This document shows, piece after piece, positions 4,611-32,526 of a stretch of DNA of 64,000 nucleotides. This DNA is from Candidatus Bathyarchaeota archaeon. Its GTDB lineage: Archaea; Thermoproteota; Bathyarchaeia; Bathyarchaeales; Bathycorpusculaceae. Location: assembly GCA_963717465.1 (NCBI GenBank), contig OY970340.1, positions 1,088,001-1,152,000 on the forward strand, written 5' to 3'. The notes under the pieces were generated by a model, which worked only from the letters and a program-made list of their open reading frames with translations, ran no database searches and had not been told where the DNA came from. Every line of letters begins with the position of its first letter. The stretch's first letter is position 1. A program made the position numbers and the translations under genes.

Positions 4611-4650
4611 TAAATCGATGGCGAAGTGGACTGTGAAGATTCGAACCCCC
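4611..4650 (+). repeat. tRNA-T-arm-core repeat, partial copy (left arm plus core)
   Basis: AAATCGATGGCGAAGTGGACTGTGAAGATTCGAACCCC. Confidence 0.55.
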
Positions 4651-4795
4651 TCTTTCAAGGATATTTAATCAATAACATTTCTTTCTCTTCTCAGGCTCAT
4701 TTTGCCTCTTTCTGAAATCTGATTATGAATTCTGAATAAACAAAGCTTAACTCTCTTCTGCGCAGAAGCTAACTCGGAAAAAAGGCGAGCTTTAC

Positions 4796-5602
4796 ATGCA
4801 GAAAGAGTCTATTTTCGATTCTAAGCCGCTAATTGAGACGCATGAACTTACAAAGAATTTTGGATCTGTTCAGGCTTTGGTCGATTTGAATTTGCGTATT
4901 ATGCCTGGAGAAATTTACGGGTTGCTTGGTCCGAATGGCGCTGGTAAAACCACGACTATTAAGACCGTCTTGGGTTTGCTGGAGCCCACGTCAGGATGGA
5001 TAAAGGTTGCTGGATATGACCCAATTAAGGATTCTTTGGAGGCTAAGTCGAAAATCGGTTATGTATCCGAGAATCCGATAGTTTACGATTCGCTTTCTCC
5101 CCGAGATTTCTTGCAGTTTGTCACGTCAATCAGGAAGCTTGATCAACGAGATACGAATGAGATGATTACTTATTTGGCTAATGCTTTTGGTATGTCGCAG
5201 TATTTTGATTCGCCCATAGCAACGTTATCGTTGGGGATGAAGCAAAAGGTTGCTTTGATAGCTTCACTTATTCATCGTCCAAGCGTTTTGCTGCTCGATG
5301 AACCGCTTAATTGCCTTGACGCAAAAAGCAGTCGCATCGTCAAGGATTTGGTTTCATTTCATGCTCAAAAAAATGGTGCTGTGCTGTTCTCCACGCACGT
5401 TTTGGAGGTTGCCGAGAAAATCTGCACGAGAATCGGTATAATAGATCAAGGCAAAGTTATAGCTGAGGGAACGCTGGATGAGCTGAAAAGTATGACTGGA
5501 GGGGTTGCTAAGACGCTTGAAGAGGTCTTTCTAAAGTTGACTCATGAAGACTTTGAAATCGCTGACACCAAGCGGATGCTGACGGAGGCATTCTTCAAGT
5601 AA
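4796..5602 (+). CDS. ABC transporter ATP-binding protein
   Basis: Walker A GPNGAGKT, LSLGMKQK signature, LLLDEP, H-loop STH. Confidence 0.93.
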   Translation: MQKESIFDSKPLIETHELTKNFGSVQALVDLNLRIMPGEIYGLLGPNGAGKTTTIKTVLGLLEPTSGWIKVAGYDPIKDSLEAKSKIGYVSENPIVYDSLSPRDFLQFVTSIRKLDQRDTNEMITYLANAFGMSQYFDSPIATLSLGMKQKVALIASLIHRPSVLLLDEPLNCLDAKSSRIVKDLVSFHAQKNGAVLFSTHVLEVAEKICTRIGIIDQGKVIAEGTLDELKSMTGGVAKTLEEVFLKLTHEDFEIADTKRMLTEAFFK

Positions 5603-7224
5603 TGAAGTTGGCTGAAGCTTGGCGATTGAGCCAGTTGCCTTACCGGGAAGAGGTCTATCAGTCTTTGGCTGAAGAGAAAGGGCGAATGTGGTGGGGCGCT
5701 TTCGGTCGGCATCAATCAGGCATGGAAAACCAAAACGACTTTGAATTAGCCACCAGAGTTCTTAGAATCGCAAAATTTGACAAAATCCTAGTTTCAGTTT
5801 TTAACGTGATGGTTGCAGCTTTGCCTTTTGTGATGTTACTGTTTGGGACACAAGTTTTCGGTTTAGCTGATTCGGTCGCGTTGAGTTTGGCAGTTACCTT
5901 GGGCTTCACTGCCCTGTATGCAATCCAAACTCTTTCATCGTTTGTAAGCGCTGACTCTTCAGTTTTATTGTTAATTTTACCCTTAGCGCGCAATGATTTT
6001 TCTCTGATATCGATTTTCTCTTTCATCCGATCGGTTGATTATATGGTCGTAGGCTCAGTGGCTAGTCAAGTTGTACTAGTTGCCCTCGTGACTCATTCTC
6101 CTCTTGCAGCCTTAATTATGCTTGTGACTGCAGTGATGAATCAAGTGTTTGCAGTTACGATTGCACTTTGGTTTTCAACAGTTTTCCAAAGAAACCTGAT
6201 GCGTGGCAGGAGATCAAAGGTTGATACATTTTTGCGTTTAATTTTCATTTTAATGTGGGGTTTATTGCTTGTTGGTGTAGGCTTCATGTTTGTCGTACCC
6301 TTGTATACTATGCCAGGTCAAGGCAGTCTACTGTTAGGGTTTGGCAATGTTTCAAGCGTGCTATTTGCTCTTTTGTATCCTTTCTCTACTGGCAATCTTA
6401 TAGCAGGGATAACTTTTTCCAATGTTGCAACCTTAACTATGTTAGTGTCATCCTTAACCTTGACAGGATATGCAGTGCTGACACTTGTTGCGGGAAAATG
6501 GACATTTGAAACTGTTAAACGAATATCTTTAGGCGCTGGGAAAAAAAATATCCGAGTGGCTGCAAAAGATTTTTCAGTTAAAATCCACAGCCCACTGTTT
6601 GGCTACGTCCTTAAGGACTTAAAAGTTGCCTCCAAAAATCCAGCAACCGCCTTATTCTTCGCCCTTCCGGCTTTGGAAACAGTTATGACTATTCTGCTTG
6701 TTTCGAATCTATCTACACTAAGAACTGTGTTTCTGCTTGACGCCACATTAATGGGTGCAATCTTTGCCTTACTCATACCCCTTGCATTACTAACTGCAGA
6801 AGGAAGGGGCTTTGAATATTCAAAGACCTTGCCAATCAGTTCCCGAAGAATAGTTGTCTCCAAAACTCTTGTGTCCACTGCAACGTACATTCTTGTGCCG
6901 ATAGCTTTGATCGGTTTATCCATCGTCAAACCTTTAACTTCGCCTTCCATCATTCTCATTCCATTGCTAACCACATTATCAGTTGCATCTGCAAGCATTT
7001 TTGAAATTATACTCTTCTTAAGATCGGCTGCAAAAAACAAAATCAACGCAATTGTAAACGACTTGGAAAAACTAATTGTCGGAGGTCTCGTCATACTTTT
7101 CCCGTTGGTGATGTATTCAATTGTTTTTCTTCTATCCTTCAACCATATCTTATCTATCTTAGTTATGGGACTTGTTGCCCTTTCTGAATTGACAGGGGCT
7201 ATGTATTTGCTCAGGCGCTCTTGA
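5602..7224 (+). CDS. ABC-2-type permease (multi-pass membrane protein)
   Basis: Many hydrophobic helices; TAATG stop/start overlap with the ATPase gene. Confidence 0.75.
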   Translation: MKLAEAWRLSQLPYREEVYQSLAEEKGRMWWGAFGRHQSGMENQNDFELATRVLRIAKFDKILVSVFNVMVAALPFVMLLFGTQVFGLADSVALSLAVTLGFTALYAIQTLSSFVSADSSVLLLILPLARNDFSLISIFSFIRSVDYMVVGSVASQVVLVALVTHSPLAALIMLVTAVMNQVFAVTIALWFSTVFQRNLMRGRRSKVDTFLRLIFILMWGLLLVGVGFMFVVPLYTMPGQGSLLLGFGNVSSVLFALLYPFSTGNLIAGITFSNVATLTMLVSSLTLTGYAVLTLVAGKWTFETVKRISLGAGKKNIRVAAKDFSVKIHSPLFGYVLKDLKVASKNPATALFFALPALETVMTILLVSNLSTLRTVFLLDATLMGAIFALLIPLALLTAEGRGFEYSKTLPISSRRIVVSKTLVSTATYILVPIALIGLSIVKPLTSPSIILIPLLTTLSVASASIFEIILFLRSAAKNKINAIVNDLEKLIVGGLVILFPLVMYSIVFLLSFNHILSILVMGLVALSELTGAMYLLRRS

Positions 7225-7391
7225 AATCGAATTCCGTAAATGATAATTAACACTATGCAGCCTGCTTTTTTTTGAGCGATTTAAAATCTGTATTCTGTTT
7301 TCACATTTTATATATTCAAATTTAAAAAATATTGGGCGTAGATGTTCAAATCTTTAAGCTTGTGGAGTTTAGCTAAGACCTAAATTACTGG

Positions 7392-9164
7392 ATGGAGGAA
7401 AAACGTTTACTTAGTATCTTTGGCATCCTTGGCTTCTCTGCCAGCGTCATATGTGTCTGCTTAGGCGCAATTGTTTTTTTCCTTAATCGGAAGTCTTCTC
7501 TGAACTTTCTTTTTGCTTTAGCAGCTCTTTTTGCTTCTTATTGGACGTTTACTGAAGCGATGACGGTACAAGCAAGCAATGCTGCGAATGCTGTTTGGTG
7601 GGATAAGGCAAATTGTTTGTGGCCGTTTTTTATCGTCCTTGCAGTTCATTTTTTAATGGTTTTTACTAATACCAAGTTGGCTAAGCCTAAATTATTTTAT
7701 TCAGCTCTTTACTTGCCTGCGATATGTATTTCCTTAATCGGTTTAATAATTGATCCAATTTATTCAGTTGCCGTTGAAACGTATTGGGGATACATTGTTA
7801 CTTACACTGACACATGGTCTACTGTCTTATGTACAGTTTGGGCGACAGGGTTGGCTCTTTTTGGAATTTTTTTGATTATAAAATATTATCTTAAGGTGGC
7901 AGATGAAACAAAAAAGTTACAGGCTAAATACGTTACAGTAGGGTTCTGTGTGCCTGCCTTTACCTACATGATAACAAATATATTTTTTCCAGCATTTGGA
8001 ATAGCGACTCCAGATTTGGTTGGTATTTCCACCGGTATTTTGGGTTGCTTGGTTGCCTACGCAATTTGGAAATACGAGTTATTCAACTTGAACCCAGTTT
8101 TAGTCGCGGAAAATATTATTTCTACCATGCCTGATTCCTTAATTCTTGCTGATTCTCAGAATCGAATTCTTAGAGTAAACAAAGCAATCTTTAATTCTTT
8201 AGGCTATGCCGAATCAGAGCTTGTCGGTAAATCAGTCTCTGACTTGTTTTTAGACAAAAAGCAAGGCTCGCAGGTCATAGAGCAATTGTTCAGCAAACGT
8301 GAAATTAACAGTTTAGAAACAAAAATTAAAACCAAATCCGGTGAAGAAAAAACAGTTTTATTTTCAGGATCTGTGGTCAAGAATAAGAGAGGTCAAGACA
8401 TTGGAATAACCTGCATTATTCATGACATAACTGATCGTAAATTGATGGAAGAAAAACTTGTCAAAGCGGAGCGGTTTGCCTCTATCGGCGAGTTGGCAGG
8501 CATGATTGGACATGATTTGCGCAACCCGTTAACAAGTATCCGTGCCGCAACTTATTACTTAAAGAACAAGTATCCTACCAAGATGACTGATACTGAAAAA
8601 GAAATGTTTCGCGCACTTGAGAGTGCCATTGCGTATTCGGATAAAATTATTGTTGATTTATTGGATTACTCAAGAAATATAGTACTGGAATTAAAACTTG
8701 TTAATCTGGAAATGTTGATATCAAATGTGTTTAAAAACATTCAGACACCGCAGAACATAGAGGTCAAGAATTTAATTGAAAAGACTCTGGAAGTAAATGT
8801 TGATGTAGTTAAAATGAATCGCGTTTTTGAAAATATTATTAAGAATGCTTTTGACGCTATGCCAAAAGGTGGGACCCTGACAATTTCAAGCCAAATAATC
8901 GACGAAAATTTGAGCTTGCAATTCAGTGATTCAGGTGAAGGCATGTCGGAGGATACTTTACATAAGATATGGGTTCCACTGTTTACTACCAAAGCTAAGG
9001 GGATAGGGTTTGGTTTATCCATTTGCAAGCGTATTGTTGAGGCTCATGGAGGTAGAATCTTTGCTGAAAGTACAATTGGGAAAGGAACAACAATCACAGT
9101 TGCGCTTCCCTCAAGTGCTCAACCATTCACAGAGAAAGAAAAACTTATGTTGACTGAATCTTAA
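7392..9164 (+). CDS. Membrane (7TM-type) PAS sensor histidine kinase
   Basis: N-terminal TM helices, PAS domain (MPDS...DITDRK), GHDLRNPL, DSGEG, KGIGFGL. Confidence 0.9.
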   Translation: MEEKRLLSIFGILGFSASVICVCLGAIVFFLNRKSSLNFLFALAALFASYWTFTEAMTVQASNAANAVWWDKANCLWPFFIVLAVHFLMVFTNTKLAKPKLFYSALYLPAICISLIGLIIDPIYSVAVETYWGYIVTYTDTWSTVLCTVWATGLALFGIFLIIKYYLKVADETKKLQAKYVTVGFCVPAFTYMITNIFFPAFGIATPDLVGISTGILGCLVAYAIWKYELFNLNPVLVAENIISTMPDSLILADSQNRILRVNKAIFNSLGYAESELVGKSVSDLFLDKKQGSQVIEQLFSKREINSLETKIKTKSGEEKTVLFSGSVVKNKRGQDIGITCIIHDITDRKLMEEKLVKAERFASIGELAGMIGHDLRNPLTSIRAATYYLKNKYPTKMTDTEKEMFRALESAIAYSDKIIVDLLDYSRNIVLELKLVNLEMLISNVFKNIQTPQNIEVKNLIEKTLEVNVDVVKMNRVFENIIKNAFDAMPKGGTLTISSQIIDENLSLQFSDSGEGMSEDTLHKIWVPLFTTKAKGIGFGLSICKRIVEAHGGRIFAESTIGKGTTITVALPSSAQPFTEKEKLMLTES

Positions 9165-9466
9165 TCATTTTTGCTTTGAAAAAAAGCAGTGATGATCTAT
9201 TCGGTTCAAAGGGCTCCAAAGAATAGCAGGGTCTTAGCGGCATCTTCTAATATTTGATGCCAAAAACATTATGCTTCATTATGCAACTTTACGGCTTAAT
9301 TATTTTCGCTTTTTAGTCGCTTCCATTGGGAAAAGGTTAAATTTTTGATTTATGATTGTGCACAACCGAAGTTAAATAGAAACAGGCTATTTCAATGTCT
9401 AAGTTAAAAAGAGAAAATCATAGTTCTCAAACATATCAATTCAAGAATAATTATACATTAACAAAC

Positions 9467-10204
9467 ATGCTTTCCAAGATCAGATTCATTTCAGTAATGC
9501 TTGTTTCTGCAATTATTTTTTCTTGCGTCAGTATTCCTTTTGTTTTTGCTGACACGTCTACTCCTGATTACGCGTTTAATGGTGCAAATTTGACGTATCA
9601 GATTTCTGGGACATACGTATTTTCATACATTGGCAATGTTTCCTATGTAGTTAGCAATGTGAACTCGACTGCACAAACATTTCTCGTCACAGTCAACTAC
9701 GGGGGCAACTTATCCGAAGTTTACAGTTCAGGTAGCAGTGTCGTTACATTTCAAGACCCTTCTCCCCTGCCTGCAGTCCCCCCGTCAGTTCTTCAAGAGT
9801 TACTTACAGGTCAAGGCAGTGGACCGTACGCTTATTACACGATAACTACTGGGGTTATAGTATCCGTACCTGCTGGTACATTCACTGCAGTTGAGTTGCA
9901 ATATGGCGACACTAGCATGTGGGTTGATCAGAATACTGGTATAATTCTAAAATATACTGGGTCATCTAGTAGTCTCTCGTCCGTAGATGAGGAGCTGCAA
10001 AGCACAAATATTGCAGGGGCCTCAGCTTTTCCAACAGTCTTGGTTGCAGTAATTATTGCAGTGGTAGTTGTCGCATGTGTAATTATTTTTTTGCTTTTTA
10101 GAAGAAGATCAAGACAGAAGCTAATTGACAGCAATCTAAATCAATCAACCAACCAATGTGCCATCTCCTCCGCCACTGCCTTAAACTACAAGCGTAATGC
10201 GTAA
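9467..10204 (+). CDS. Exported, C-terminally anchored surface protein, paralog 1 (tail apparently frameshifted near 10150; the paralog-like PSPPPLP tail ends at 10184)
   Basis: Signal peptide, S/T-rich body with VSVPAGTF motif, TM helix plus RRR; strongly similar to 10478..11209. Confidence 0.75.
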   Translation: MLSKIRFISVMLVSAIIFSCVSIPFVFADTSTPDYAFNGANLTYQISGTYVFSYIGNVSYVVSNVNSTAQTFLVTVNYGGNLSEVYSSGSSVVTFQDPSPLPAVPPSVLQELLTGQGSGPYAYYTITTGVIVSVPAGTFTAVELQYGDTSMWVDQNTGIILKYTGSSSSLSSVDEELQSTNIAGASAFPTVLVAVIIAVVVVACVIIFLLFRRRSRQKLIDSNLNQSTNQCAISSATALNYKRNA

Positions 10205-10226
10205 TGATATTGTGTGTACTGGACTT

Positions 10227-10269
10227 AGCAAAATTGATGTTGAAGTTGACCAAAGGGATTTGAACCCTT
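10227..10269 (+). repeat. tRNA-T-arm-core repeat, partial copy (left arm plus core)
   Basis: AGCAAAATTGATGTTGAAGTTGACCAAAGGGATTTGAACCCTT. Confidence 0.7.
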
Positions 10270-10477
10270 GCTAAATGCAACTATGCCGTTTTGTCATAGT
10301 CCTGTTCCCCAAAAGCTTCCTTTTTGAGAAAGGTTAAATTATGCTTGCTTGTTTTATCATTTTCCGCAGCCGAGTTAAATAAGGAATAGGTGAAAGGCTA
10401 TTTCAGTGTTTAATCTAAAAGAAATAGGCTTAAGTTTAGACAGAGATTGCTTCGAACATAATTATAAATTAACAAGT

Positions 10478-11209
10478 ATGTTTTCGAAAACTATATTCTT
10501 TTCAGTTATGCTTGTTTCTGCAATTATTTTTTCTTGTGTCAGTATTCCTTCTGTTTTTGCTGACACGTCTACTCCTGCTTACGCATTTAATGGTGCAAAT
10601 GTAACATATCAGATTTCTGAAACAACTGGTGGCTCAACGTATAGCGGCACTATTTCTTATACGGTTAGCAATGTTGACACGACAGCGCAGACTTTTACTG
10701 TAACTACAAGTTATACTGGAAATTTGGCAACACTTGAGGGTTCAGGAGGCAGTGTTTCTACTTCATTTGATAGCTCTGGATTTGCAGTATCCCCGTCTGA
10801 CCTTCAAGAGTTAAATAAAGGTCAAGCCACTGCTACATATGCTGATTATACTGTAACCGATGGAGTTTCAGTGACAGTACCCGCCGGCACATTTACCGCA
10901 GTAGAATTACAATCTAGCGATACTAGCATTTGGTTTGATCAGAACACGGGTATACTGCTAAAAATAACTGGTTCATACGGAGATCTTTCTTCAGCAAATG
11001 CACAACTTCAAAGCACAAATGTTCCAGGAACCTCAGCTTTTCCAACACTCTTAGTAGTAGTAATTATTGTTGCTGTCGCAGTTGTGTGCATAATCATTTT
11101 CCTAATGTTTAGAAGAAGAAAATCAAGACAAAAGCTGATAGATAGTAATTCAAATCAATCAACCAACCTTCCTCCTCCTCCGCCTCCTCCACCACCACCG
11201 CCGCCTTAA
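10478..11209 (+). CDS. Exported, C-terminally anchored surface protein, paralog 2, with poly-Pro tail
   Basis: Signal peptide, VTVPAGTF, TM helix plus RRRK, terminal poly-Pro run. Confidence 0.8.
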   Translation: MFSKTIFFSVMLVSAIIFSCVSIPSVFADTSTPAYAFNGANVTYQISETTGGSTYSGTISYTVSNVDTTAQTFTVTTSYTGNLATLEGSGGSVSTSFDSSGFAVSPSDLQELNKGQATATYADYTVTDGVSVTVPAGTFTAVELQSSDTSIWFDQNTGILLKITGSYGDLSSANAQLQSTNVPGTSAFPTLLVVVIIVAVAVVCIIIFLMFRRRKSRQKLIDSNSNQSTNLPPPPPPPPPPPP

Positions 11210-11254
11210 CCAATAAGCACAATGTGTAATGATATCGAATGTACATTGGGAATT

Positions 11255-11284: not shown

Positions 11285-11525
11285 GTAGCCCAAAGAAGAT
11301 TTCATGCTAAAACCACTTTTTGCCATCGAATAATTGCTTGAGTCGTTGAGACTGCGCCTGTCCAGCAGAAATCATCAGTGCATTTTGCGTAAGGGGTCAC
11401 TCGCCAATTAACCTCAATTATATCTGAAACCCCGTTCTTAACCTCGTTGTTATCAACTTGAAGAGTTGTTTAATCTAGCAAGCAAACGTTAGCTGATCGT
11501 TGAAAAATTTGTGGAATGGAATGCC

Positions 11526-12290
11526 TTAATATGCACTCCAGCCTTTATCGACTGAAAGAATTACACCGGTTATGAACGAAGAATCATCGCTTGCTAAGAA
11601 TAATGCAGCCTTTGCAATTTCCTCGGGCTGGCCCATTTCAGTCATCGCTGCTCCATAATTGACATCGTCTTTAGCCATGCCCGCTTTACTAATATCTATT
11701 TCGAAGTTCATAGTTGTTTGAAAAGCACCAGGAGCTATTCCATTGCATCGTATACCTAAATTACGGTATAAGAATCCTGTATTTTTTGTTAACCCAACTA
11801 GAGCCCACTTACTTGAGGTATATGCAGCTCCAGCTTCACCTCCACCTAAGCCTCCTCTTGAACAAATGTTAACAATAACGCCAGCTCCCTTTGGCAGGAA
11901 CACATTTTTGATAGCGTACCGCATTGACCTAAATGGGCCCTCAAAATTAACCCCCATTACTTTTTTCCACAGTCCATCATCAACTTCATGCACCAGACCG
12001 AAATTATCCATAACGCCAGCATTATTTACCAAAATATCCAATGTTCCATACGTGTTAACTGCTACGTTAATCATGTTTTGTACATCTTCTTCTTTTGTAA
12101 CATTTGAAAGAAGAGTTGTTACTTGTCCACCCATCTGCTCAATTTCAGATTTAGTTTCATCAAGCCTAGTCTGAATGATATCAGTAGCTATAACTTTGCT
12201 ACCTTCTGCAACAAACAATTTTGCAATTTCTTTTCCCATTCCAGAGCCTGCGCCAGTTACGATGGTTACTTTATTCTCCAATTTTTTCAT
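11526..12290 (-). CDS. Short-chain dehydrogenase/reductase (classical SDR)
   Basis: TGAGSGMG, NNAG, YTSSK; GGAGGTG upstream of ATG 12290. Confidence 0.92.
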   Translation of the reverse strand: MKKLENKVTIVTGAGSGMGKEIAKLFVAEGSKVIATDIIQTRLDETKSEIEQMGGQVTTLLSNVTKEEDVQNMINVAVNTYGTLDILVNNAGVMDNFGLVHEVDDGLWKKVMGVNFEGPFRSMRYAIKNVFLPKGAGVIVNICSRGGLGGGEAGAAYTSSKWALVGLTKNTGFLYRNLGIRCNGIAPGAFQTTMNFEIDISKAGMAKDDVNYGAAMTEMGQPEEIAKAALFLASDDSSFITGVILSVDKGWSAY

Positions 12291-12351
12291 TGTACTCTTC
12301 ACCTCCTGCAAACGTGCCTATAACTAGATGTTTTAAAGGGAAAATTGTACA

Positions 12352-12849
12352 TTATTCGAGGCCCATCATACTTTCTAACTCGTTCCGACGTTCTTTAAAA
12401 CGCCATTTACCATCTTCGCACTTGACAAATTTGTCAAAGTACCGGCCGAAGCACAGAACGAAAGGTCCACTCTCTCCACCATTGTCGAGTCGCACAAAAT
12501 ATGTTACTGCCGATGCCTTGTCGTTGCCCTCCAACTTGATTACTGGCTCAATGATGAGATGTTTATGATAAGCCTCGGGAGCATGGTCATGCATGTGGAT
12601 ATAATCACTCAAGTCTTTTCCGCTGTATCCATCTTCGGGTTGTGGTATGCCGAAAAGTTCAGGCATTTTAACTCCACGGATACCTGACCAGTAATGTGCA
12701 TCCTTAGTAAAGAGATCAAGCCATTCTTCGGCCAAGCCATAGTCGATTGCATGGGCATACGCGTTCATTGTTTGCTGTATGTCTCGTTCCGCCTCTAATG
12801 CTTCTAAACGTTGCTCCAAAGCTTTTACACGCTTTTCCATTTCACTCAT
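12352..12849 (-). CDS. SnoaL/NTF2-like protein (BaiE/LinA-like fold)
   Basis: LEAERDI...YAHAID, H..I.P.I, GRY.D.FVK..DG.WRF..R pattern. Confidence 0.8.
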   Translation of the reverse strand: MSEMEKRVKALEQRLEALEAERDIQQTMNAYAHAIDYGLAEEWLDLFTKDAHYWSGIRGVKMPELFGIPQPEDGYSGKDLSDYIHMHDHAPEAYHKHLIIEPVIKLEGNDKASAVTYFVRLDNGGESGPFVLCFGRYFDKFVKCEDGKWRFKERRNELESMMGLE

Positions 12850-12881
12850 AACTATTTCCTTCTAAATTTCCCATTCATTTT

Positions 12882-13664
12882 CTATCCGAAAATATTATCG
12901 TCATGCATGATGTATTGTCCTGTTCGGTCATCAATTTTTCCCGCTGCCATGAATAGAATCCGTTTGATAATTGCCTCAGGGCTTTGTGCATCCGCGTTAT
13001 ACACATCTTTGAACCAAGGCATCCATTTTTCATTTTTCTCCGTTAAGCAGTTATCATTTAAAGTTGTATTCTTCACAACTCCAGGTTCGGTGGCAAAGAC
13101 GCTTATTCCGTGCTCTTGTAACTCAACAGCGAGGGTCTCAGTAAGTTTTGTAAGTGCAATCTTGCTAACCATGTAAGCGGACAAGTAAGGTAATGTCACA
13201 GAATATGCTCCACTGGTAATGTTAACAATACGTCCACGTCCACGCTTAATCATTCCAGGCAAAACAGCTCGGATAAGAAGAACTGGTCCCCGCAAATTGA
13301 TGTTTTGGCATTGCCACCAGTCATCAGGGTCCACTTCCCAAAGAGGCCCAACTGGATCATTGGTTGCAGCACTGTTTACCAACAAATCAACGGGACCTAA
13401 TTCCTTTTCAATCTGTTTTATCGCGCGCTCGACCGCAGGGCGATCAGTAACGTTCAGCGGTAAAGCGTATCCACGTCCTCCTTTTGCCTTAATAAGATCA
13501 ACTGTTTTAGCTAAATGCTCAGCTGAACGGGAGATAACTGCTACAGTTGCTCCTGCCTCAGCGAGGGCTATAGCTAATGCCTGTCCTATTCCGGTTCCTC
13601 CGCCGGTAACAATCGCTACTTGATTTTTAAGATTTATAGATTCTTTTTGATCATTTTTACTCAT
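12882..13664 (-). CDS. Short-chain dehydrogenase/reductase
   Basis: TGGGTGIG, YMVSK catalytic motif. Confidence 0.9.
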   Translation of the reverse strand: MSKNDQKESINLKNQVAIVTGGGTGIGQALAIALAEAGATVAVISRSAEHLAKTVDLIKAKGGRGYALPLNVTDRPAVERAIKQIEKELGPVDLLVNSAATNDPVGPLWEVDPDDWWQCQNINLRGPVLLIRAVLPGMIKRGRGRIVNITSGAYSVTLPYLSAYMVSKIALTKLTETLAVELQEHGISVFATEPGVVKNTTLNDNCLTEKNEKWMPWFKDVYNADAQSPEAIIKRILFMAAGKIDDRTGQYIMHDDNIFG

Positions 13665-13694
13665 AATTTTTTTCTCCACTTGTTTTTTCAACTA

Positions 13695-15425: not shown

Positions 15426-15457
15426 ATCCTATCACGATAATTTGAATTGTGTTGATA

Positions 15458-15582
15458 AATATTTAAAAAGAATCATAGGCAACTGTCAGTTTTCTGCCAC
15501 AAAATTAGCCTACATATTTAAATTTCTTACTTGCTTGTTTCCATTGTTGCATCAAAACAATAATCTTTGATACAATGGCAAT
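15458..15582 (-). promoter_or_regulatory. Conserved upstream block (TATA-like TTAAATA plus TGCAA boxes), divergent copy
   Basis: Aligns by eye with 47213..47330 and 49487..49605. Confidence 0.5.
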
Positions 15583-15753
15583 CACCAATAGACGGAAAAT
15601 TCAACTTTTATTCTAAACTGTATTTTTAGCGAGCCTTCGAAGGAAAAAAACAGCAAGTAGGCTAATATGCATATGTTAATCTCTTCAGTGCATGCCAATT
15701 TATGTGTTATTGGGTAATTTGTGTTGAATGCTTCAATTGTTAACGGGCTATTG

Positions 15754-16386
15754 TTATTCTGTAGGTTCGAAGAATTTTCCAAAATTTCGCAGTGAAAACG
15801 GTTTTGGAAACTCTCTTCCAGTGCGAAACACGAAGGAGTTTACTTTTACGTTTTGAAGTATATTCTTCATCAATATTGCGTCTTTCTGTAATTTCTTAAA
15901 TAACTCAACATATTCTTCATAATTTCTGTGCATTGATACAATAACAAAATTTGTTGCGCCTAAGCCTTCATCCTGTAGAAAACATAATATTGCAGGATAT
16001 TTTTCCGCCCATACATGAAATTCACCAGGGGCTGGTGTAACCGCATCAGCACTTGAAACAAATGTAAACACGAGGATATCGATTCCTAATTTGTGCAAGT
16101 TCGGTATTGCGGTGTATTCTTGTATGTAGCCTTCTTGCTCCAGCTTTCTTATTCTTCTTGACAATGTTGTGTGAGTTATTCCTAAATCTTTAGAGATAGC
16201 TCTTTCGCTTTTATTACCTTGCGCCATTAGAGTAAACAAGACTTTGAGGATTTCCTGTTTCTCCTGTGTTTTCCTATCCACCATTTTCTTTTTCACAACT
16301 TTATCCATAGCATCAAAATATTCGCTACAAGTTTTAAATTTTTGTTTTTTATCGAATATTAATGTCAGTAAATGCGATTTAGACAT
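15754..16386 (-). CDS. Lrp/AsnC-type winged-helix transcriptional regulator (start uncertain, possibly near 16283)
   Basis: SERAISKDLGI...LSRRIRKLEQEGYI.EY; paralog of 49798..50388. Confidence 0.8.
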   Translation of the reverse strand: MSKSHLLTLIFDKKQKFKTCSEYFDAMDKVVKKKMVDRKTQEKQEILKVLFTLMAQGNKSERAISKDLGITHTTLSRRIRKLEQEGYIQEYTAIPNLHKLGIDILVFTFVSSADAVTPAPGEFHVWAEKYPAILCFLQDEGLGATNFVIVSMHRNYEEYVELFKKLQKDAILMKNILQNVKVNSFVFRTGREFPKPFSLRNFGKFFEPTE

Positions 16387-19829: not shown

Positions 19830-19858
19830 TAATTCTTAATTCTCAATTGTTGTCGCAA

Positions 19859-21121: not shown

Positions 21122-21566
21122 GTTAACGCTTCCCGCAAACAGGTATGTGTTTATGCAGCACTTGATTTTTTTAAACCTAATGTTTCTTTACAGATTATTT
21201 ATTAAACAATATTTATCTCTTTTGTTTAATAAAATCACACCATATTATTGTGCGCGTGTTCAAATGAAATACTTGATTGTTTTCTAAAATAAGCGTAATT
21301 GTAATCTACCCAGTTCGTATATTATATAAACAAAAAATTTATTAGTTATTTAGTAATTAAACTACAGCTTGCCTAAAACACATACAGTGGCTGGTGCGCT
21401 TATCTAACGGCGCAAGCGAGCTGTTAAGGCAAGCGTTCCAGTCACAACTCCATCAACATGCCAATACTTGATGGCACCAGGAAAATTAGAAAGAAACGTT
21501 TCGCATAAGATAACTAATTTTTTAAACATTTTTGGGCCAATCCCAACAAATTTCAATACTTCTACA

Positions 21567-21628
21567 GAGACCGCGAGCATTCGAACCCATAAGCAAGTGG
21601 AGACTTCACTCGCAATTTCCATTTCTTT
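21567..21628 (+). repeat. tRNA-T-arm-core repeat (core plus right arm)
   Basis: GAGACCGCGAGCATTCGAACCCATAAGCAAGTGGAGACTTCACTCGCAATTTCC. Confidence 0.75.
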
Positions 21629-21711
21629 GTAAAATATTTTTTTCTTATTCTCGTTGTTTCGGATTAATGTTTAATGGTGTTCTAAAAAAAGTGCGTAAAA
21701 TGATGGCTATC

Positions 21712-25639: not shown

Positions 25640-25805
25640 TTGTCTAACAACACCTCCTAGTTAGATAGATTAATAATCTAGTCAAATAAAAACTTATCCA
25701 AAATTATTGACGGCTAAAAGGATTTGAACCTAACATTTGAAATTTCGTTCGCAACAAGTTTTTAAGAAAATAAAAATGGCAACAGGGGCAAAGATGCCGG
25801 CAATC

Positions 25806-25880
25806 CGCGAAATCTGTTGAAGTGGGTCCGTGCGGATTTGAACCACCACCAAGTGGATATTTCAATACAAATTCCATATC
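25806..25880 (+). repeat. tRNA-T-arm-core repeat, full copy (a degenerate copy precedes it at 25708..25755)
   Basis: CGCGAAATCTGTTGAAGTGGGTCCGTGCGGATTTGAACCACCACCAAGTGGATATTTCAATACAAATTCC. Confidence 0.75.
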
Positions 25881-26034
25881 TACATTTTTTCAAAAGCAAA
25901 TATTGATTCTTTGAAGTTACATAACCCGCACGCTGTAGCTCACATGCAGAGGTCAACTTGTGGTTGTGCTGTCCTTCCAGCATTGCTTTTTATGCCCCGA
26001 TTCCTTTCTTGTAAAATGATACTGAGGATTTCTT

Positions 26035-26463
26035 ATGAGCAAATCGACGCCCACTACACAGGAAAAGAAGCCTCTAGGCACCATAATAGCTGCTGTGGTC
26101 TTGGCTGTTGTTTCGATTTGGTGGCTCGCGCTTGGATTTTTGTATTTCTTCGGCTCATGGTATTGGCTGTTCTATGCAGGTATTCCTTTTGTCTGGGTTT
26201 GGGGAATACTTTACGGTTTCATGGGATTTATTGGTCTAATTATAGCCGGAGGACTTTATACCGGAGTTCGACAAGCTTGGACTATAACATTAATTATAGC
26301 AATATTAGACATTCTATTTAGCATACCAGCGCTATTCAACGGCTATGGAATAACCGGTGCAGTATTGTCTGCAGTGGTTATTATCGTTCTATTGATTCCA
26401 GGTACGAGGGCATACTATAAACGCGAAACCCCTCCAGCAAATGCTTCTAATCCAAAGAACTAA
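26035..26463 (+). CDS. Small 4-TM membrane protein
   Basis: Hydrophobic helices, C-terminal P.TRAYY motif. Confidence 0.7.
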   Translation: MSKSTPTTQEKKPLGTIIAAVVLAVVSIWWLALGFLYFFGSWYWLFYAGIPFVWVWGILYGFMGFIGLIIAGGLYTGVRQAWTITLIIAILDILFSIPALFNGYGITGAVLSAVVIIVLLIPGTRAYYKRETPPANASNPKN

Positions 26464-26585
26464 GTAAGAGCATCTGCGTTTGATAACAATGTAATTTCTT
26501 GCAAGGATAAGCTATTGTATTTTCTAAGAAACTACGCTAAGCAGATTGGGCATGTACTGTTAATTTTTTCTTCAGAATTGCAAGG

Positions 26586-27680
26586 TTAGCCTCCATAGTC
26601 CCACCCATAGTAGCCATCCCCGCTTGGATTTTTGTTTTCGGAAGCTGAAGCTGTTTTGCCGGTGTGGCATGTGCCAACAATAGGTATTTTTGTTCCGCAC
26701 TTAGGGCAAGTGTATTTCGAAGTCAAGTTGTAAGTGACAGCGTACTGAAAAGTGTAAAAGTTCGAGGTACTTCTTTTAATTAGCTGTTCGCCGCATTCTG
26801 GGCAATTCGTGTTTTTTTCATAGTCGCTGTACACATATTTAAGCCCTAAATTTCTAAGACGATTGGATAGTTCCATTACGTGACCGCTTTCTACAGGCTT
26901 ATTGTCAATCAAACATCCATACATAAAGGATAGTAAATGTAAAGGTGTTTCTGGACCTAAATTATCCAGTACCCATTTGCCAAGTTTAATTTGCTCCTGA
27001 TCTGAATCGCCGTGTTCAAGCATAACTATATTTGATATTTCAACGTGAACTTTTTTTTCTTTAAACAATTTTGCGCATTCAAATATGGGCTGTACATTAT
27101 GTACGTCGCATATTTCCTTGTAAAATTTGCTATTTCCTGAACCCTTGAAATCTATTGTTACCGCATCGATGTATGGCGCAATCATTTCTACAGCTTCAGG
27201 AGTCATGTATCCGTTAGTGATTAATACTGTGTTCAAATTAGACTTTTTAGCTAGCTTGGCAGTGTCGTATGCATATTCAAAAAAGATTGTTGGTTCATTA
27301 AAAGTGAAACTTACTCCTTGGCAGCCGGTTTTTATGGCCGCTTCTACAATTTCTGATGGCCAAACCTTTGCCACAGGTTTGAACTCTTTTTCACTGCTTA
27401 ATTCGAAGTTTATGCAGAATTTGCATCTGAAATTGCAGCTTGTTGTGCCAAACGAATATGTTGCAGAACCAGGATTAAAATGAAACTGCAACTTTTTTTC
27501 TATATCATCAATATAGCGTATACTTAGTGCGCCATAAATATCCGTTAGTAAATTGCCTTCAAAATTTCTTCGTACGTTGCAAAATCCAACTTTGCCTTCA
27601 GGAATAACACATCGTCTAGCGCAAAGATCACACCGCACGCCTGAAGAAACTGGTGTATACAACTTCGCTAGCATTGACAT
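26586..27680 (-). CDS. amrS: AmmeMemoRadiSam-type radical SAM enzyme
   Basis: CDLCARRC...GFCNVR, CNFRCKFC, TFNEP, TNGY, C-terminal CPECG/CPKCG. Confidence 0.85.
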   Translation of the reverse strand: MSMLAKLYTPVSSGVRCDLCARRCVIPEGKVGFCNVRRNFEGNLLTDIYGALSIRYIDDIEKKLQFHFNPGSATYSFGTTSCNFRCKFCINFELSSEKEFKPVAKVWPSEIVEAAIKTGCQGVSFTFNEPTIFFEYAYDTAKLAKKSNLNTVLITNGYMTPEAVEMIAPYIDAVTIDFKGSGNSKFYKEICDVHNVQPIFECAKLFKEKKVHVEISNIVMLEHGDSDQEQIKLGKWVLDNLGPETPLHLLSFMYGCLIDNKPVESGHVMELSNRLRNLGLKYVYSDYEKNTNCPECGEQLIKRSTSNFYTFQYAVTYNLTSKYTCPKCGTKIPIVGTCHTGKTASASENKNPSGDGYYGWDYGG

Positions 27681-27794
27681 AATTCATTGTCAACTCAGAA
27701 TATCAATCTAGAAACGTACTATAAATCTATTAGTCTGAAATATAAATTACTTTCAAGAAACGAAAAAAGCACTTGTCCACTAGTATCGGTTTTC

Positions 27795-27876
27795 AGCAAA
27801 ATCCGATGTCGTAAGAACCGGTAGGGATTTGAACCGCATGAATGTGGAGATTTCACCCGCAAATTCCTCGTCTTTT
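27795..27876 (+). repeat. tRNA-T-arm-core repeat, full copy
   Basis: AGCAAAATCCGATGTCGTAAGAACCGGTAGGGATTTGAACCGCATGAATGTGGAGATTTCACCCGCAAATTCC. Confidence 0.8.
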
Positions 27877-28163
27877 TTCTTAGGTTCGGTTTGGTAACGA
27901 AACAACGGAAATTTTAAGGGATAAGCTTTGAAAAGTTTACCATCGGTCGACTAACTTAAATAGTGACCTGAGAGGAGAGAAAATGAAGAAAAAGAAAAGC
28001 GTTACCGAAAAACCAAGCATATACATAAGTTGATTTTTTCCGCAACCTTTTTTCCGCAACCTTAATACATTAAAAAATAACCAAATACTAGAGCAATCAA
28101 ATGCTAAGTTATGCCAAATTACGTCAATGCTTGAATTGATAGAAGGCATAGAAGGAAGGCAAC

Positions 28164-28739
28164 TTGAAAAAAGAAATTATTCATAATCAAACTGCTGAAC
28201 GAAAAACTTTGGAGGAAAGCGTCAAGCCAAAGAAATCAAAGTCAGCGCCTATCCTAGATGATGTTGACAGGCACATTCTGCAGATAATTCAGGATGATTT
28301 TCCCCTTGTTCAAAAACCGTGGCAGGAGATAAGTTCCAGACTTAGCATCAGTGAAAGCGAAGTAATGGCTAGGTTGCGGCGACTCAGCGAAGAAGGTGTA
28401 ATTCGTAAAATAGGTCCAATCATCGAGAACTCAAAGATCGGCTTAAACGCTTCCACCTTAGTCGCGGTAAAAGTTCAGAAAGATCGAGTTGACCAAGTTT
28501 CCTGCATCATTAACCAGTTTGATAATGTTTCTCATAATTACGAGCGGGAAGATGAGTACAATGTTTGGTTCACTCTTGTTGCTTCAAGCAAAAGCAGATT
28601 GACTGAAATTCTGGATGAGATTAAGAGGAAAACTGGCGTTGAAGAACAGGATATGCTTAGTCTTCCGACTGTTCGGCGCTTCAAAATAAACGTGTGTTTT
28701 CAACTGACTGAACAAACTTCAGGTGAAAAGAATGGATGA
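28164..28739 (+). CDS. ahbA: Siroheme decarboxylase subunit alpha
   Basis: Lrp-like fold, Q.DFPL..KPW, VSHNYERE..YNVWFT; first gene of the ahb cluster. Confidence 0.88.
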   Translation: MKKEIIHNQTAERKTLEESVKPKKSKSAPILDDVDRHILQIIQDDFPLVQKPWQEISSRLSISESEVMARLRRLSEEGVIRKIGPIIENSKIGLNASTLVAVKVQKDRVDQVSCIINQFDNVSHNYEREDEYNVWFTLVASSKSRLTEILDEIKRKTGVEEQDMLSLPTVRRFKINVCFQLTEQTSGEKNG

Positions 28740-29208
28740 AGTTGACCGAAACCTCCTTTCTGCATTAAAGAAAGGGATTCCTTTAACAGTTGAACCCTTC
28801 AACGAAGTCGCTAAGCAGTTGGGAATTAGTCCTCAAGAAGTTGTCTCCAGACTAATTGCATTTCAGAAGGATGGCGTAATTAGAAGGTTTGGCGCATTCG
28901 TGAAACCTAACAGCGTGGGTTTTCCAGCAAATGCTCTTGTAGCTTGGAAAGTACCTCAAGAAAGCATTTGTAAAGTCGGAAGTTATCTGTCAAAACTCAG
29001 GGAAGTCTCACATTGTTACGAGCGAGAAGTAGTCGCTGGGAAATGGAAATATAACCTCTACTTAGTGATTCATGCGAAAAATCGTGAGGATATTCAGCGG
29101 CTGGCCAAAGATATTTCAATGGAGCTGGCAATCAACGAGTATAAAATACTCTACAGCATAAGGAACCTAAGAGAAACAGTTCCTGTTTCATCAACACCGA
29201 AACTTTGA
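28723..29208 (+). CDS. ahbB: Siroheme decarboxylase subunit beta
   Basis: IRRFGA, NALVAW.V, VSHCYER, W.YNLY..IH. Confidence 0.88.
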   Translation: MKRMDEVDRNLLSALKKGIPLTVEPFNEVAKQLGISPQEVVSRLIAFQKDGVIRRFGAFVKPNSVGFPANALVAWKVPQESICKVGSYLSKLREVSHCYEREVVAGKWKYNLYLVIHAKNREDIQRLAKDISMELAINEYKILYSIRNLRETVPVSSTPKL

Positions 29209-29247
29209 AAAGCTAACTGAATATGGAGACGTAGAAGGTAACTTGCT

Positions 29248-30396
29248 TTGATTAACATTTCTAAGCTTTGGTCAGGAACCCCTGGTTCAATGGATCACTT
29301 ACGATACGGCAACAAAACTCATCAAAAACCTGTGGTTGTTTGGAATGCCACCCAGAGATGCAACCTTAACTGCGTCCACTGCTATTCAGAGTCCAAGAAC
29401 AGAATTTACCCGAGCGAATTAACGACCGAGGAAGCGCAGGCTTTTGTAAAGGATTTGGCCGAGTTCGGGGTAAGTGTCCTGCTGTTTTCTGGCGGTGAAC
29501 CCTTGCTTCGACATGACATCTTTGAAGTGGCGAGTTTAGCTTCTGATATGGGCATCAAGACAGTTTTGTCCACGAACGGCACCCTCATCACAGAAAACAA
29601 GGCGAAGATGCTTAAGAAGAAGGGTTTTTCGTACGTCGGCGTCAGTTTAGACGGCGTAGGCGAAACAAACAATAAGTTTAGAGGCAAAGAAAAAGCCTTC
29701 GAGCTGGCAGTTGAGGGAATAAGAAACTGTCTTAAGGCAGATGTTAAGCCAGGGTTGCGTTTTACGATTACAGCCTACAATTATAAGGATGTACCAGAAA
29801 TCTTCAATTTTGTCGAAGCTGAACATGTTCCGAGGGTCTGCTTCTATCATCTGGCTTACGTTGGACGCGGGACAAACATTGCCTGCAGTGATCTGACGCA
29901 TGCCCAGTCAAGAGCGTTTATGGATTACCTCTTAGAAAAAACTGAAGCCTTATACAAGAAGGGTTTAAACACTGAAATACTGACGGTGGATAACCATGCC
30001 GACGCAGCGTACTTGTACCTCAAGCTGAAGGAAAAAGATCCACAAAAAGCGGAGGAAACATTGAAACTTCTAAAGATTAATGGCGGCAACAGTTCAGGCT
30101 CGGGAATTGCGTGCGTTGATTCCACGGGTCTTGTGCATGCTGACCAATTTTGGAGACATTATTCAGTTGGCAACATCCGTACAAGGAAATTCAGTGAAAT
30201 CTGGAATGATAACTCAGAGCCCCTTCTCCATGCTTTACGAAACAGAAAAGCATACTTGACTGGAAAATGTGTAGCATGCCGATTCCTCGGTATATGCAAC
30301 GGTAACTTGAGGGTAAGAGCGGAAGCAGTTTACCGTGACATGTGGGCACCTGACCCAGCTTGCTATTTGACAAAAGCAGAAGTAAAAATGGATTGA
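29248..30396 (+). CDS. ahbC: Radical SAM Fe-coproporphyrin synthase (NirJ1)
   Basis: KPVVVWN.T.RCNL.C.HCY, LTVDNHAD, GGNSSG, HADQFW, APDPACY. Confidence 0.9.
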   Translation: MINISKLWSGTPGSMDHLRYGNKTHQKPVVVWNATQRCNLNCVHCYSESKNRIYPSELTTEEAQAFVKDLAEFGVSVLLFSGGEPLLRHDIFEVASLASDMGIKTVLSTNGTLITENKAKMLKKKGFSYVGVSLDGVGETNNKFRGKEKAFELAVEGIRNCLKADVKPGLRFTITAYNYKDVPEIFNFVEAEHVPRVCFYHLAYVGRGTNIACSDLTHAQSRAFMDYLLEKTEALYKKGLNTEILTVDNHADAAYLYLKLKEKDPQKAEETLKLLKINGGNSSGSGIACVDSTGLVHADQFWRHYSVGNIRTRKFSEIWNDNSEPLLHALRNRKAYLTGKCVACRFLGICNGNLRVRAEAVYRDMWAPDPACYLTKAEVKMD

Positions 30397-30406
30397 AGGC
30401 AATGAT

Positions 30407-31483
30407 ATGAACGCAACAGAGCCGCATTCTGTTAAAAGGCAGGAGTTGGCGCCTAGAGTTTTAGCTTGGGAATCAACACGTGCCTGCAACTTTGCCTGTG
30501 TCCATTGCCGAGCCAAAGCCCAAAGGAAAGCTAACCCAAAGCAGCTTACCACTCAAGAAACATTAGACATGATTGATCAAATTGCCGCGTTCTGCAAACC
30601 CGTTTTTATCATAAGCGGTGGCGACCCTTTCCTTAGAGCAGACATATTCCAAGTTGCCTCGCATGCATGTAGCCAAGGCTTTCGGGTGGTTATGTCTCCA
30701 AGTGGCAGTAATATTACCTCAAAAACTTTCCAAGAAATGAAGAATGCAGGGGTGAAAATGATTTCCCTGAGCCTAGACGGGTCTACTTCAAAAATTCATG
30801 ACAATTTTAGGCAAGTTCCAGGTGCATTCAACATGGCACTGGAGAACATGGCGTTGGCGCGTGAAAGCAACTTTCCGTTCCGCGTGAACACAACCGTCAC
30901 CCAGCATAATCTCGGCGACCTTTCAAACATTCTTAAGCTGGCGACAGAAATAGGTGCCATAGAATGGGATGTCTTCATGCTGGTTCCAACGGGACGCGGA
31001 AAAGTCCAGATGGAAATAACGCCTCAACAGTACGAAGAAACCCTCCAATTCATCTACACAGCCAGCCTCAACGCGCCGATTCCCATCAAAATGACCTGCG
31101 CTCCCCACTACACGCGAGTTACCGCAGAACACCGAAAAAAAGCGAGTCAAAATGCTGATAATAGTAGACCTCAAACGGGTGGCAGAGGATGCATGGCGGG
31201 CAATGGGTTCTGCTTCATTTCCCACATTGGAGAAGTCTTCGGATGCGGTTTCCTTCCAGTCGCAGCGGGCAACATTAGGCAACAGAGCTTTAGGCAAATC
31301 TATCAGCAGTCGCCACTGTTTATTGAACTCCGTAATCATCAATTGTTAAAGGGCAAATGTGGAACCTGCGAGTACAAAGTGATGTGCGGAGGATGTAGAG
31401 CCAGAGCCTTGTCTATCAACAAAAATATTCAAGGAGAAGAACCATACTGCGTCTACGAACCTAAAAGATTGGGTATCGTTTAA
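30407..31483 (+). CDS. ahbD: Radical SAM heme b synthase (NirJ2)
   Basis: WESTRACNFACVHCRA, FMLVPTGRG, TCAPHY, RGCMAG, CGGCRAR. Confidence 0.9.
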   Translation: MNATEPHSVKRQELAPRVLAWESTRACNFACVHCRAKAQRKANPKQLTTQETLDMIDQIAAFCKPVFIISGGDPFLRADIFQVASHACSQGFRVVMSPSGSNITSKTFQEMKNAGVKMISLSLDGSTSKIHDNFRQVPGAFNMALENMALARESNFPFRVNTTVTQHNLGDLSNILKLATEIGAIEWDVFMLVPTGRGKVQMEITPQQYEETLQFIYTASLNAPIPIKMTCAPHYTRVTAEHRKKASQNADNSRPQTGGRGCMAGNGFCFISHIGEVFGCGFLPVAAGNIRQQSFRQIYQQSPLFIELRNHQLLKGKCGTCEYKVMCGGCRARALSINKNIQGEEPYCVYEPKRLGIV

Positions 31484-31621
31484 AGTTGCATTTTGAAAAA
31501 TCGATTTCCCTGTTTGCTTCAGCCAATGTTGCTAAGGCTGATAGTGCCTTTTCAAACTGTTTCTCAAGCATAATTTTAGCTTAGCTTCTATTCAATTTTA
31601 GTTTGATTTTTGAATTGAGTT

Positions 31622-32257
31622 CTAAATGGTTTCTAAAGCTTTTTGCTTCGCATCATCAAACTTGCCCTTCTTGAGCAGCTCCTTGACAGTCGAGTCCTCG
31701 ATTATCCTGTTAAGGATTGCTTTTCTGGTTTTTTGGTCGGCAACCGTTTGCTTGAGTTCTTTACGCAGCTGTTCCTGCAATTCTATCTGCAGCAAATCCT
31801 CAGGCGTGATCATTTTCTCCACTCTCTTTCTCAGAATGCTAGCCATAGCTGGGCTTTTTCCACTGGTTGAAACAGCTATTTTAACGTCTCCGACCTTTGC
31901 AACAGCTGGAAGAACAATATCACTTATAGAGGGGTTGTCTGGCGAGTAGACAAGGCATCCCTCAGACTTGGCTGACTCGAAAAGTTGAGCATTAAACTCA
32001 TGATTATTCGTAACTGCGACTACCACGAACGGTTTTAGGTCTAGGCTTTTTATAAAGGCGTTGGCGTCATTGATTTTTTCATTTCGTAGGCAAATTTTCT
32101 GTCTTTTACTCAACGCCAATATGTCGCTTGAAAAGGAACTGCTTACTACAAATATTTTGGCGCCTGCATCTAGAAAATCGATAGTTTTCCTGTAGGCTTC
32201 TTCGCCGCCGCCGACTACAACAACAAATTTGCCTTCAAGCTTCAGGTCTACAAGCAT
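31622..32257 (-). CDS. sirC: Precorrin-2 dehydrogenase/sirohydrochlorin ferrochelatase (CysG N-terminal/SirC)
   Basis: VVVVGGG, IAVSTSGKSPAMA; adjacent to ahb genes. Confidence 0.85.
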   Translation of the reverse strand: MLVDLKLEGKFVVVVGGGEEAYRKTIDFLDAGAKIFVVSSSFSSDILALSKRQKICLRNEKINDANAFIKSLDLKPFVVVAVTNNHEFNAQLFESAKSEGCLVYSPDNPSISDIVLPAVAKVGDVKIAVSTSGKSPAMASILRKRVEKMITPEDLLQIELQEQLRKELKQTVADQKTRKAILNRIIEDSTVKELLKKGKFDDAKQKALETI

Positions 32258-32446
32258 TCCTTATCATTCACCCTTAAAATGCTTCGAGCGTCAACACTAA
32301 AATCTTAAGTGCCCCGATTTGAATTTTTCTACCATAACAGCGTAATCCTTAATCCTACTCTATGCGATGCTATGTGGTTCGCTGCTTATGGTGATTTCAA
32401 GAGTAAAACTGCCGTTTGAGCAACGAACACAATGCTTGTAATTTAA

Positions 32447-32526
32447 AGCAAAGGCATGTTGAACTGGATCGGTGGGAATTTGAACCCCAAGCAAAGTGGA
32501 GATGCCACCCGCAAATCCCATCTTTT
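32447..32526 (+). repeat. tRNA-T-arm-core repeat, full copy
   Basis: AGCAAAGGCATGTTGAACTGGATCGGTGGGAATTTGAACCCCAAGCAAAGTGGAGATGCCACCCGCAAATCCC. Confidence 0.8.

Follow-up and report, generated by a model that had tools for sequence, protein, structure and literature searches.

Co-oriented tRNA-Ala-derived junctions between gene units in a Candidatus Bathyarchaeota genome, probably left by repeated insertion of tyrosine-integrase elements

Results

Co-oriented tRNA-derived junctions separate gene units

The DNA analysed here, referred to as the window, is a stretch of 64,000 nt (C1:1088001-1152000) from the single-contig genome of a Candidatus Bathyarchaeota archaeon (3.05 Mb, 40% GC), in which copies of a repeat with a tRNA-derived core, here termed junctions, separate blocks of genes, here termed units. 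Window coordinates are used unless "genome" is stated, and the strand given for a junction is that of the tRNA sense, which is the minus strand for all junctions of this array. In a complete junction the order is a left flank, the tRNA 3′ end with the T-arm (the core), a spacer, a 17-nt non-coding box and a T tract. The array and its units are as follows.

genome 1076787 and 1082090: older junctions ahead of the window
4611..4672 (-): junction, Ala-type left flank (8/10) and tRNA-Ala 3′ end/T-arm (core 17.5/24), box eroded
4690..10226: 5.6-kb unit without integrase; ABC ATPase, 12-transmembrane protein, PAS histidine kinase and a 269-aa protein
10227..10275 (-): junction, Ala-type left flank (10/10) and T-arm core, box lost
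10300..11254: one-gene unit, 1.0 kb, 267 aa
11255..11290 (-): vestigial junction, left flank (10/10) and acceptor strand; T-arm and box lost
11300..21566: 10.3-kb unit; SDRs, SnoaL, FAD oxidoreductase, regulator, NfeD, methyltransferase and radical SAM protein
21567..21630 (-): complete junction, diverged core, box at 21597-21613, T tract
25708..25754 (-): eroded junction, 98 bp before the next one (emptied unit)
25806..25880 (-): junction, left flank, core 19/24, box partly eroded
25880..27794: 2.0-kb unit; small open reading frame(s) (ORFs) and the AmrS radical SAM gene
27795..27878 (-): complete junction, core 20/24, box at 27844-27860, T tract
27880..32446: 4.65-kb unit; ahbABCD heme operon and sirC
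32447..32530 (-): complete junction, core 22/24, box at 32496-32512, T tract
32531..64000: first part of a 39-kb stretch without detectable Ala junction, which ends at genome 1159706
genome 1159706 (core 23/24) and 1160584: junctions between the window and the tRNA

The original prediction had listed eight co-oriented copies in the window, and all 8 were found where it placed them, in one orientation. Three of the eight (21567, 27795 and 32447) are complete, with both core and box, and the other five are decayed: 25806 and 25708 keep the core with an eroded box, 4611 and 10227 keep the left flank and core (T-arm), and 11255 retains left flank and acceptor strand only, its core match of 12/24 falling under the random 99th percentile of 14 and its left flank match of 10/10 comparing with a random 99th percentile of 8. 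The one-gene unit at 10300..11254 resembles the end of the preceding unit (71% identity across ~980 bp). It had also been claimed that the copies lie between functionally unrelated modules and that the window encodes no integrase; both claims were upheld, the modules comprising an ABC transporter with a kinase, an SDR cluster, AmrS, and AhbA-D with SirC, and no integrase being present among the window proteins. No Rfam family match and no intact tRNA were found in the window.

A search with a 20-nt box motif (≤3 mismatches) gave 12 matches in the genome, compared with 0-1 for each of 10 shuffled motifs, and profile scores reached 46-50 bits in the genome and at most 10 bits in the reversed genome, ruling out chance for the repeat family as a whole. 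Only 3/8 window copies pass the cut of an independent profile built from relatives alone.

The array is anchored at tRNA-Ala(TGC)

The copies match the 3′ end of an intact tRNA-Ala(TGC) gene at genome 1173141-1173217 on the minus strand, 21 kb past the window. In total the Ala array has 12 junctions over 96 kb, the outermost of which adjoins housekeeping genes, and the identity of the core to the tRNA drops with distance from it (rho -0.82, p 0.001, n=12). The copy at genome 1159706 duplicates the tRNA tail together with 600 bp of downstream flank (89%); since this copy runs on into the genomic flank of the tRNA, copying took place at the DNA level. The proposal of attP-like junctions in a tandem array at a tRNA locus is thus supported by an intact anchor and 12 co-oriented junctions. 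The array had further been expected to end at an intact tRNA accompanied by a tyrosine recombinase: the tRNA is present, whereas no such recombinase was found in the Ala array, family integrases being located at tRNA-Ala in relatives instead. The genes found next to the Ala array in three relatives are located at 2.88 Mb in this genome.

The relatives-only profile identified 21 box-bearing sites in the genome, 13 of which lie ≤15 kb 3′ of a tRNA (from a set of 49 compiled by hand) and are co-oriented with it, compared with 2.3 expected at random and 2 with strands flipped, clustered sites not being independent in this count. The genome scan suggested with the prediction therefore returned clustering and co-orientation behind tRNAs (13/21 sites) and not random scatter. 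The box occurs behind ~8 tRNAs in this genome, giving 8 anchored arrays that occupy ~159 kb (5% of the genome).

The box is shared between tRNA types and the left flank is not

Junction structure was analysed using 81 distinct copies from other genomes that were chosen by the box pattern, a choice that overstates box conservation. T-arm and box are separated by a spacer of 9 nt in 70/81 copies, and conservation stops at the T tract. The left flank is conserved among Ala-type copies alone, and the box is common to copies of different tRNA types; the earlier statement that both flanks are conserved non-tRNA sequence thus holds for the box across tRNA types and for the left flank within the Ala type, and fails for the left flank beyond it. 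Identity with the tRNA stops 3-4 bp into the 5′ strand of the T-stem. The box is non-coding, as the spacer contains in-frame stops and, upstream, each of the three frames stays open for a median of 11-14 codons. The predicted inverted-repeat hairpin was not recovered: RNAalifold gave 0 pairs in 24 copies, and DNA folding of 182 junctions gave a mean z of -0.37, with 4% below -2. At 25 tRNAs adjacent to an integrase, an inverted box sought on the left arm did not stand out from shuffles (median -2.6 vs -4.1, shuffle maximum -1.5).

Among the matches listed for the exact box motif (at least 123 records), 77/80 are from Bathyarchaeota or Bathyarchaeia, and the exact pattern had 0 matches in viral contigs. 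A sequence model of the junction matches 30/31 related genomes, some of which may have been counted for plain tRNA tails.

A Zn-ribbon tyrosine integrase family occurs at the same tRNA ends

The search seed was an integrase fragment of the relative G002 whose end lies 50 bp from a junction, and it identified the corresponding tyrosine integrase family in 101/121 family genomes. The full-length integrases are 375-449 aa long, contain an N-terminal Zn ribbon, match PF00589 above cut-off, and score far under the XerA and integron-integrase cut-offs. In 28/30 of the best loci a tRNA adjoins the integrase stop codon, which lies 20-150 bp from the tRNA end, and 26 are convergent on the tRNA 3′ end; the 3′-end targets in these loci are tRNA Cys, Arg, Ser, Pro, Gly and Phe. 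One integrase element carries a prim-pol gene. No conjugation genes were present among the ORFs scanned, and an Atlas search with the small gene upstream of the integrase gave no usable match.

In L203, L198 and L207, the DNA running from the integrase ends in a box junction after 12.9, 18 and 5.5 kb. In the relative G013 an integrase lies at tRNA-Ala(TGC), with the left flank known from the window separating the tRNA from the integrase stop codon. This position of the Ala left flank, together with elements that end in the box, indicates that the two conserved flanks are the two ends of the element. The Ala left flank is present in 32/120 genus genomes, and 30 loci carrying it comprise 15 intact tRNA-Ala genes, 10 box junctions and 5 others. 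Upstream of the 15 intact tRNA-Ala genes there are 5 long integrases (2 in two pieces), 6 remnants and 4 loci with neither. The five Ala-type integrases form a single clade (support 100/100), and the integrase tree groups the Ala, Ser and part of the Cys rows; as 14/34 inner branches are open, no order of target switches is claimed. Intact Ala-type integrases are present at L208, L240 and L255. This integrase family is likely the maker of the junctions.

Members with other layouts were also seen. The nearest integrase in this genome, 39-41% identical, is of a 5′ type at tRNA-His. It belongs to a 16.7-kb element (L015, genome 2397348-2413976) with an intact family integrase that uses the tRNA-His 5′ end and with a 29-bp repeat whose second copy is at genome 2412279; L176 and L179 have the same 5′ layout at tRNA-Pro(GGG). 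In the relative G016 a family integrase is apparently split across the tRNA-Arg 3′ end in tRNA sense (L034:4043-4930), with a short N-terminal integrase frame at the far repeat (L034:9300-9410), and a broken version of this split layout may exist at tRNA-Val (genome 909882-910783).

Integrase remnants beside the junctions

C-terminal integrase remnants, which vary in length, flank 9/77 junctions of relatives and 1/28 of this genome on the left side, compared with 1/75 on the box side. Internally deleted integrases occur at tRNA-Ala loci, and in this genome remnants are located at the Cys and Glu arrays and at one orphan array. From these sequences, the integrase-less state of the units looks, at least in part, as if elements that once carried an integrase had decayed.

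Between-genome homology ends at the junctions

In a set of 218 junctions, homology was confined to the box side in 8 pairs and to the left side in 13, and after removing 5 self-overlaps 0 pairs were homologous on both sides, so that homology breaks at the junction in 21/21 non-trivial homologous pairs. Breakpoints of gene gain and loss between genomes thus fall in the junctions, as the prediction required. At the orthologous Ala locus G001, G003 and G016 carry different integrase-less units of 0.6-5 kb. The locus L056 is without exactly two units (7.8 kb) found between junctions in G003; as identity is 87% for the inner unit and 96% for the outer one, independent insertion is possible. Three one-gene units without integrase are shared over their full length by genomes in which the neighbours differ on both sides: L038/L104 (0.85 kb, 92-95% identical), L106/L117 (0.66 kb, 90%, with outer cores that differ in tRNA type) and L076/L080 (1.1 kb, 85%). 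In G016, one unit consisting of a box end plus a gene occurs in both the Ala and the Arg array (66-72%). Such comparisons are hinting at an exchange of integrase-less units between junctions in trans. The median unit size between junctions is ~1.3 kb (n=64), a value pulled downward by the use of 6-kb loci.

For the ahb operon of the window, a role as travelling cassette is unsupported, since it is chromosomal with no junction within 1.5 kb in 19/19 relatives' loci (28/80 genomes matched), which suggests that host DNA was captured into the array. Copies of TBP, Alba and histone genes were seen inside junction-bounded units of relatives (L021:11354-13314; L028:13492-13716).

Other features of the window and genome

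Four junction clusters in this genome, three of which carry a near-identical variant arm, are located away from tRNAs and are possibly array pieces split off by rearrangement:

L011: genome 226537-235718
L012: genome 530169-531440
L013: genome 1501086-1501596
L014: genome 2064882-2068739

A tRNA-Gly 3′ half (anticodon arm to CCA) at 43133-43205 (+), opposite in strand to the Ala junctions and without a box, resembles a scar that another island left within the 39-kb unit. The same unit encodes a 983-aa Eco57I/MmeI-like DNA methyltransferase (51400-54351). A PQQ-type beta-propeller surface protein with 120-bp internal repeats is located at 41186-42772, with a further partial copy at 43366, and a molybdopterin oxidoreductase at 44848-47160 is present as two ORFs (149 and 607 aa), possibly due to a frameshift or sequencing error. 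Many conserved genes are split ORFs throughout this assembly, suggesting assembly indel errors, and single broken genes should be read with caution.

A second dispersed non-coding repeat of ~350 bp, strongly A/C-rich on one strand and with a short palindrome, is 81-89% identical between copies (L003:600-950, L002:7150-7500, and genome 2162662, 832938, 2249836, 1922126 and 2064693). Two of its copies are at the tRNA-proximal ends of Ala units.

Discussion

Origin of the array

The array can with good probability be attributed to repeated site-specific insertion of one tyrosine-integrase family behind tRNA-Ala(TGC), each insertion leaving a junction and the integrase genes probably being lost later by deletion. 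In a circular element, the two ends flanking a tRNA tail would constitute attP, and the tRNA would be restored by a crossover within or close to the T-loop. The next element would then use the restored tRNA and push older units outward, and with this reuse every inner junction would become attP-like. Internal deletions would strip the integrase and replication genes while the cargo stays between intact ends. With less support, an integrase of the family acting in trans may occasionally excise and re-insert junction-bounded units, also at other tRNA types, the shared box being the putative binding site that would permit such exchange. From general knowledge of tyrosine recombinases, we would guess that the box might be an integrase arm site and that the T tract might terminate the integrase transcript in the circle.

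Several observations weigh against this explanation. The role of the box as an integrase binding site is a proposal, with binding putative, and the crossover point is not pinned by the spacers, whose identity is 0.55 in box-side pairs, 0.42 in left-side pairs and 0.36 at random. A box junction was reached in only 3/17 integrase-tRNA stretches (followed for ≤20 kb, several being cut by contig ends), and 1/17 showed a direct repeat with a different arm. No intact 3′-type member of the family was found in this genome, and the Ala array itself yielded no integrase remnant. The four junction clusters without a tRNA nearby are not accounted for by simple accretion, and neither are the cores of the Glu and Tyr arrays, which match other tRNAs. 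No recombination was observed: one public read run (share 0.06) was too shallow, with sparse contigs and no joint at the junction, and is evidence neither way.

Alternative explanations

The integrase-less units could be a mobile class in their own right, shuffled as cassettes in an integron-like manner by family integrases acting in trans and not mainly products of decay. One-gene units shared end to end between different neighbours (L038/L104, L106/L117 and L076/L080) point this way, as do the absence of exactly two G003 units from L056, the unit type common to the Ala and Arg arrays of G016, the newest position being without a long integrase in 10/15 intact tRNA-Ala loci, and host-type genes (TBP, Alba, histone and the ahb operon) within units. 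However, variable-length remnants, internally deleted integrases and emptied units of 50-100 bp show erosion, differing neighbours would also be expected from independent insertion of related elements or deletion between repeats, and there is no attC-like structure, and we regard this possibility as rather unlikely. The same tentative rank is given to its broadest form, an integron-like gene exchange throughout Bathyarchaeia in which integrase-less units of one to a few genes, host genes included, would carry a universal box and be excised and re-inserted in trans at any junction by passing integrases of one family, so that cargo would be shuffled within arrays and across tRNAs. It is similarly doubtful that the junctions are dead scars whose later differences between arrays are due solely to ordinary chromosome rearrangement and to slippage or homologous recombination at the 60-bp repeats. 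Consistent with dead scars, the older window copies are heavily eroded, box included, the genome is without a cognate intact integrase, and exchange points are scattered over core, spacer and box; in contrast, near-perfect boxes and the 9-nt spacer are kept across genomes and tRNA types, in a set biased by its selection for the box, and by general knowledge homologous recombination would be hampered by repeats this short and divergent.

A self-spreading tRNA-derived repeat resembling a short interspersed nuclear element or miniature inverted-repeat transposable element, or a small RNA, could account for ~20-35 copies per genome with one common box and for clusters without a tRNA. Such an origin is very improbable, as the copies are polar to tRNAs and age with distance, the nearest copy runs into the genomic flank of the tRNA and not into added CCA, homology breaks within the repeat and not around it, and neither an Rfam match nor a fold was found; with copies not randomly oriented and no structured RNA of a known family, this candidate and that of a known non-coding RNA are largely refuted. 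Relics of SSV-type split integrases, in which the box would be coding sequence, find a parallel in the G016 element split across the tRNA end in tRNA sense. The in-frame stops and short open stretches around the spacer speak against coding, there is no PF16795 match in the genome, and integrases beside junctions either are intact or have their truncation at the opposite side. With the att core outside the integrase frame, a split-integrase origin is ruled out for box-bearing copies, and as a general account it is the most remote of those considered.

Significance

Bathyarchaeia are abundant sediment and soil archaea known mainly via metagenomes, and the box offers a simple marker that delimits their accessory modules. 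The cargo of the arrays is ordered by age and includes the heme pathway, methyltransferase modules and surface proteins. For an integrase family whose clades are tRNA-specific, with a compact site of ~60 bp, direct tests are feasible, and, if trans exchange across tRNAs is true, an integron-like gene shuffler would have arisen from ordinary att sites.

Comparison with known systems

No publication on such arrays in Bathyarchaeia was found in a search that covered mostly open main texts, and supplementary island tables could hold some elements; in the accessible part of the Bathyarchaeia virus paper (PMC10848311) no such arrays are described. Regarding the integron-like accretion system originally proposed, tandem accretion at a tRNA is supported and the defining integron features are not. 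The likeness to integrons consists of co-oriented sites between small gene units with breakpoints at the sites; the differences are the missing attC hairpin and IntI (TIGR02249 scores of 68-78 bits vs a cut-off of 265), the tRNA gene as target and mixed gene orientation within units.

Among archaea, the cryptic integrated elements of Thaumarchaeota and pNOB8-type (class II) elements have an intact integrase gene and short att sites in tRNA 3′ regions (PMC6563490, PMC8371274), and arrays from re-use of one site are mentioned as known (PMC6563490). The family described here shares the layout of an intact tyrosine recombinase gene beside the att site, whereas in the accessible text the Thaumarchaeota have 1-8 elements per genome, and integrase-less arrays and a shared box are not described. 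Tycheposons combine tRNA-specific tyrosine integrase clades, a small primase/helicase module and cargo in islands that grow from the tRNA end (bioRxiv 10.1101/2020.12.28.424599); they belong to marine bacteria, and their likeness to the Bathyarchaeia elements is one of layout. In the additive islands of Alteromonas (PMC4898812) and Actinomarinales (PMC7771536), cassettes are added at tRNAs, marked by tRNA-fragment repeats and shared in different order between genomes. An integrase family and an arm motif, neither of which is assigned in the accessible published description of these islands, are both proposed here.

The closest resemblance is to accretion arrays of the type formed by Dehalococcoides ssrA islands and streptococcal cis-mobilizable elements (CIMEs). 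The ssrA islands are inserted at the T-loop and lie in tandem within ≤100 kb of the tDNA, with a 20-bp 3′-end repeat and an adjacent conserved 15-bp motif, and 15 of them without an integration module are read as CIMEs (PMC3146451). Unlike these islands, which have one target (tmRNA) and a serine recombinase, the arrays studied here involve a tyrosine integrase family and many tRNA targets with a common box. Streptococcal CIMEs arise by integration, decay that keeps the att sites and new insertion at the target gene end, and their chimeric inner att sites are still able to recombine (PMC5704250). Streptococci have conjugative helpers and short tandems, whereas here there are up to 12 junctions per array and no transfer machinery among the ORFs scanned. 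As in both systems, co-oriented 3′ fragments lie behind a tDNA, integrase-bearing kin have the same ends, integrase-less units keep their att ends, and boundary content differs between genomes; deletion-derived units are marked by the remnants at 6/15 tRNA-Ala loci. Since the integrase-less state resembles decay as in the published CIME and accretion model, the system is less new than originally proposed. Gene islands built by repeated insertion and integrase loss at a tRNA are already known; what is new is the cognate integrase family, the box common to many tRNA targets throughout the class, the breakpoint evidence and the comparative hints of trans exchange.

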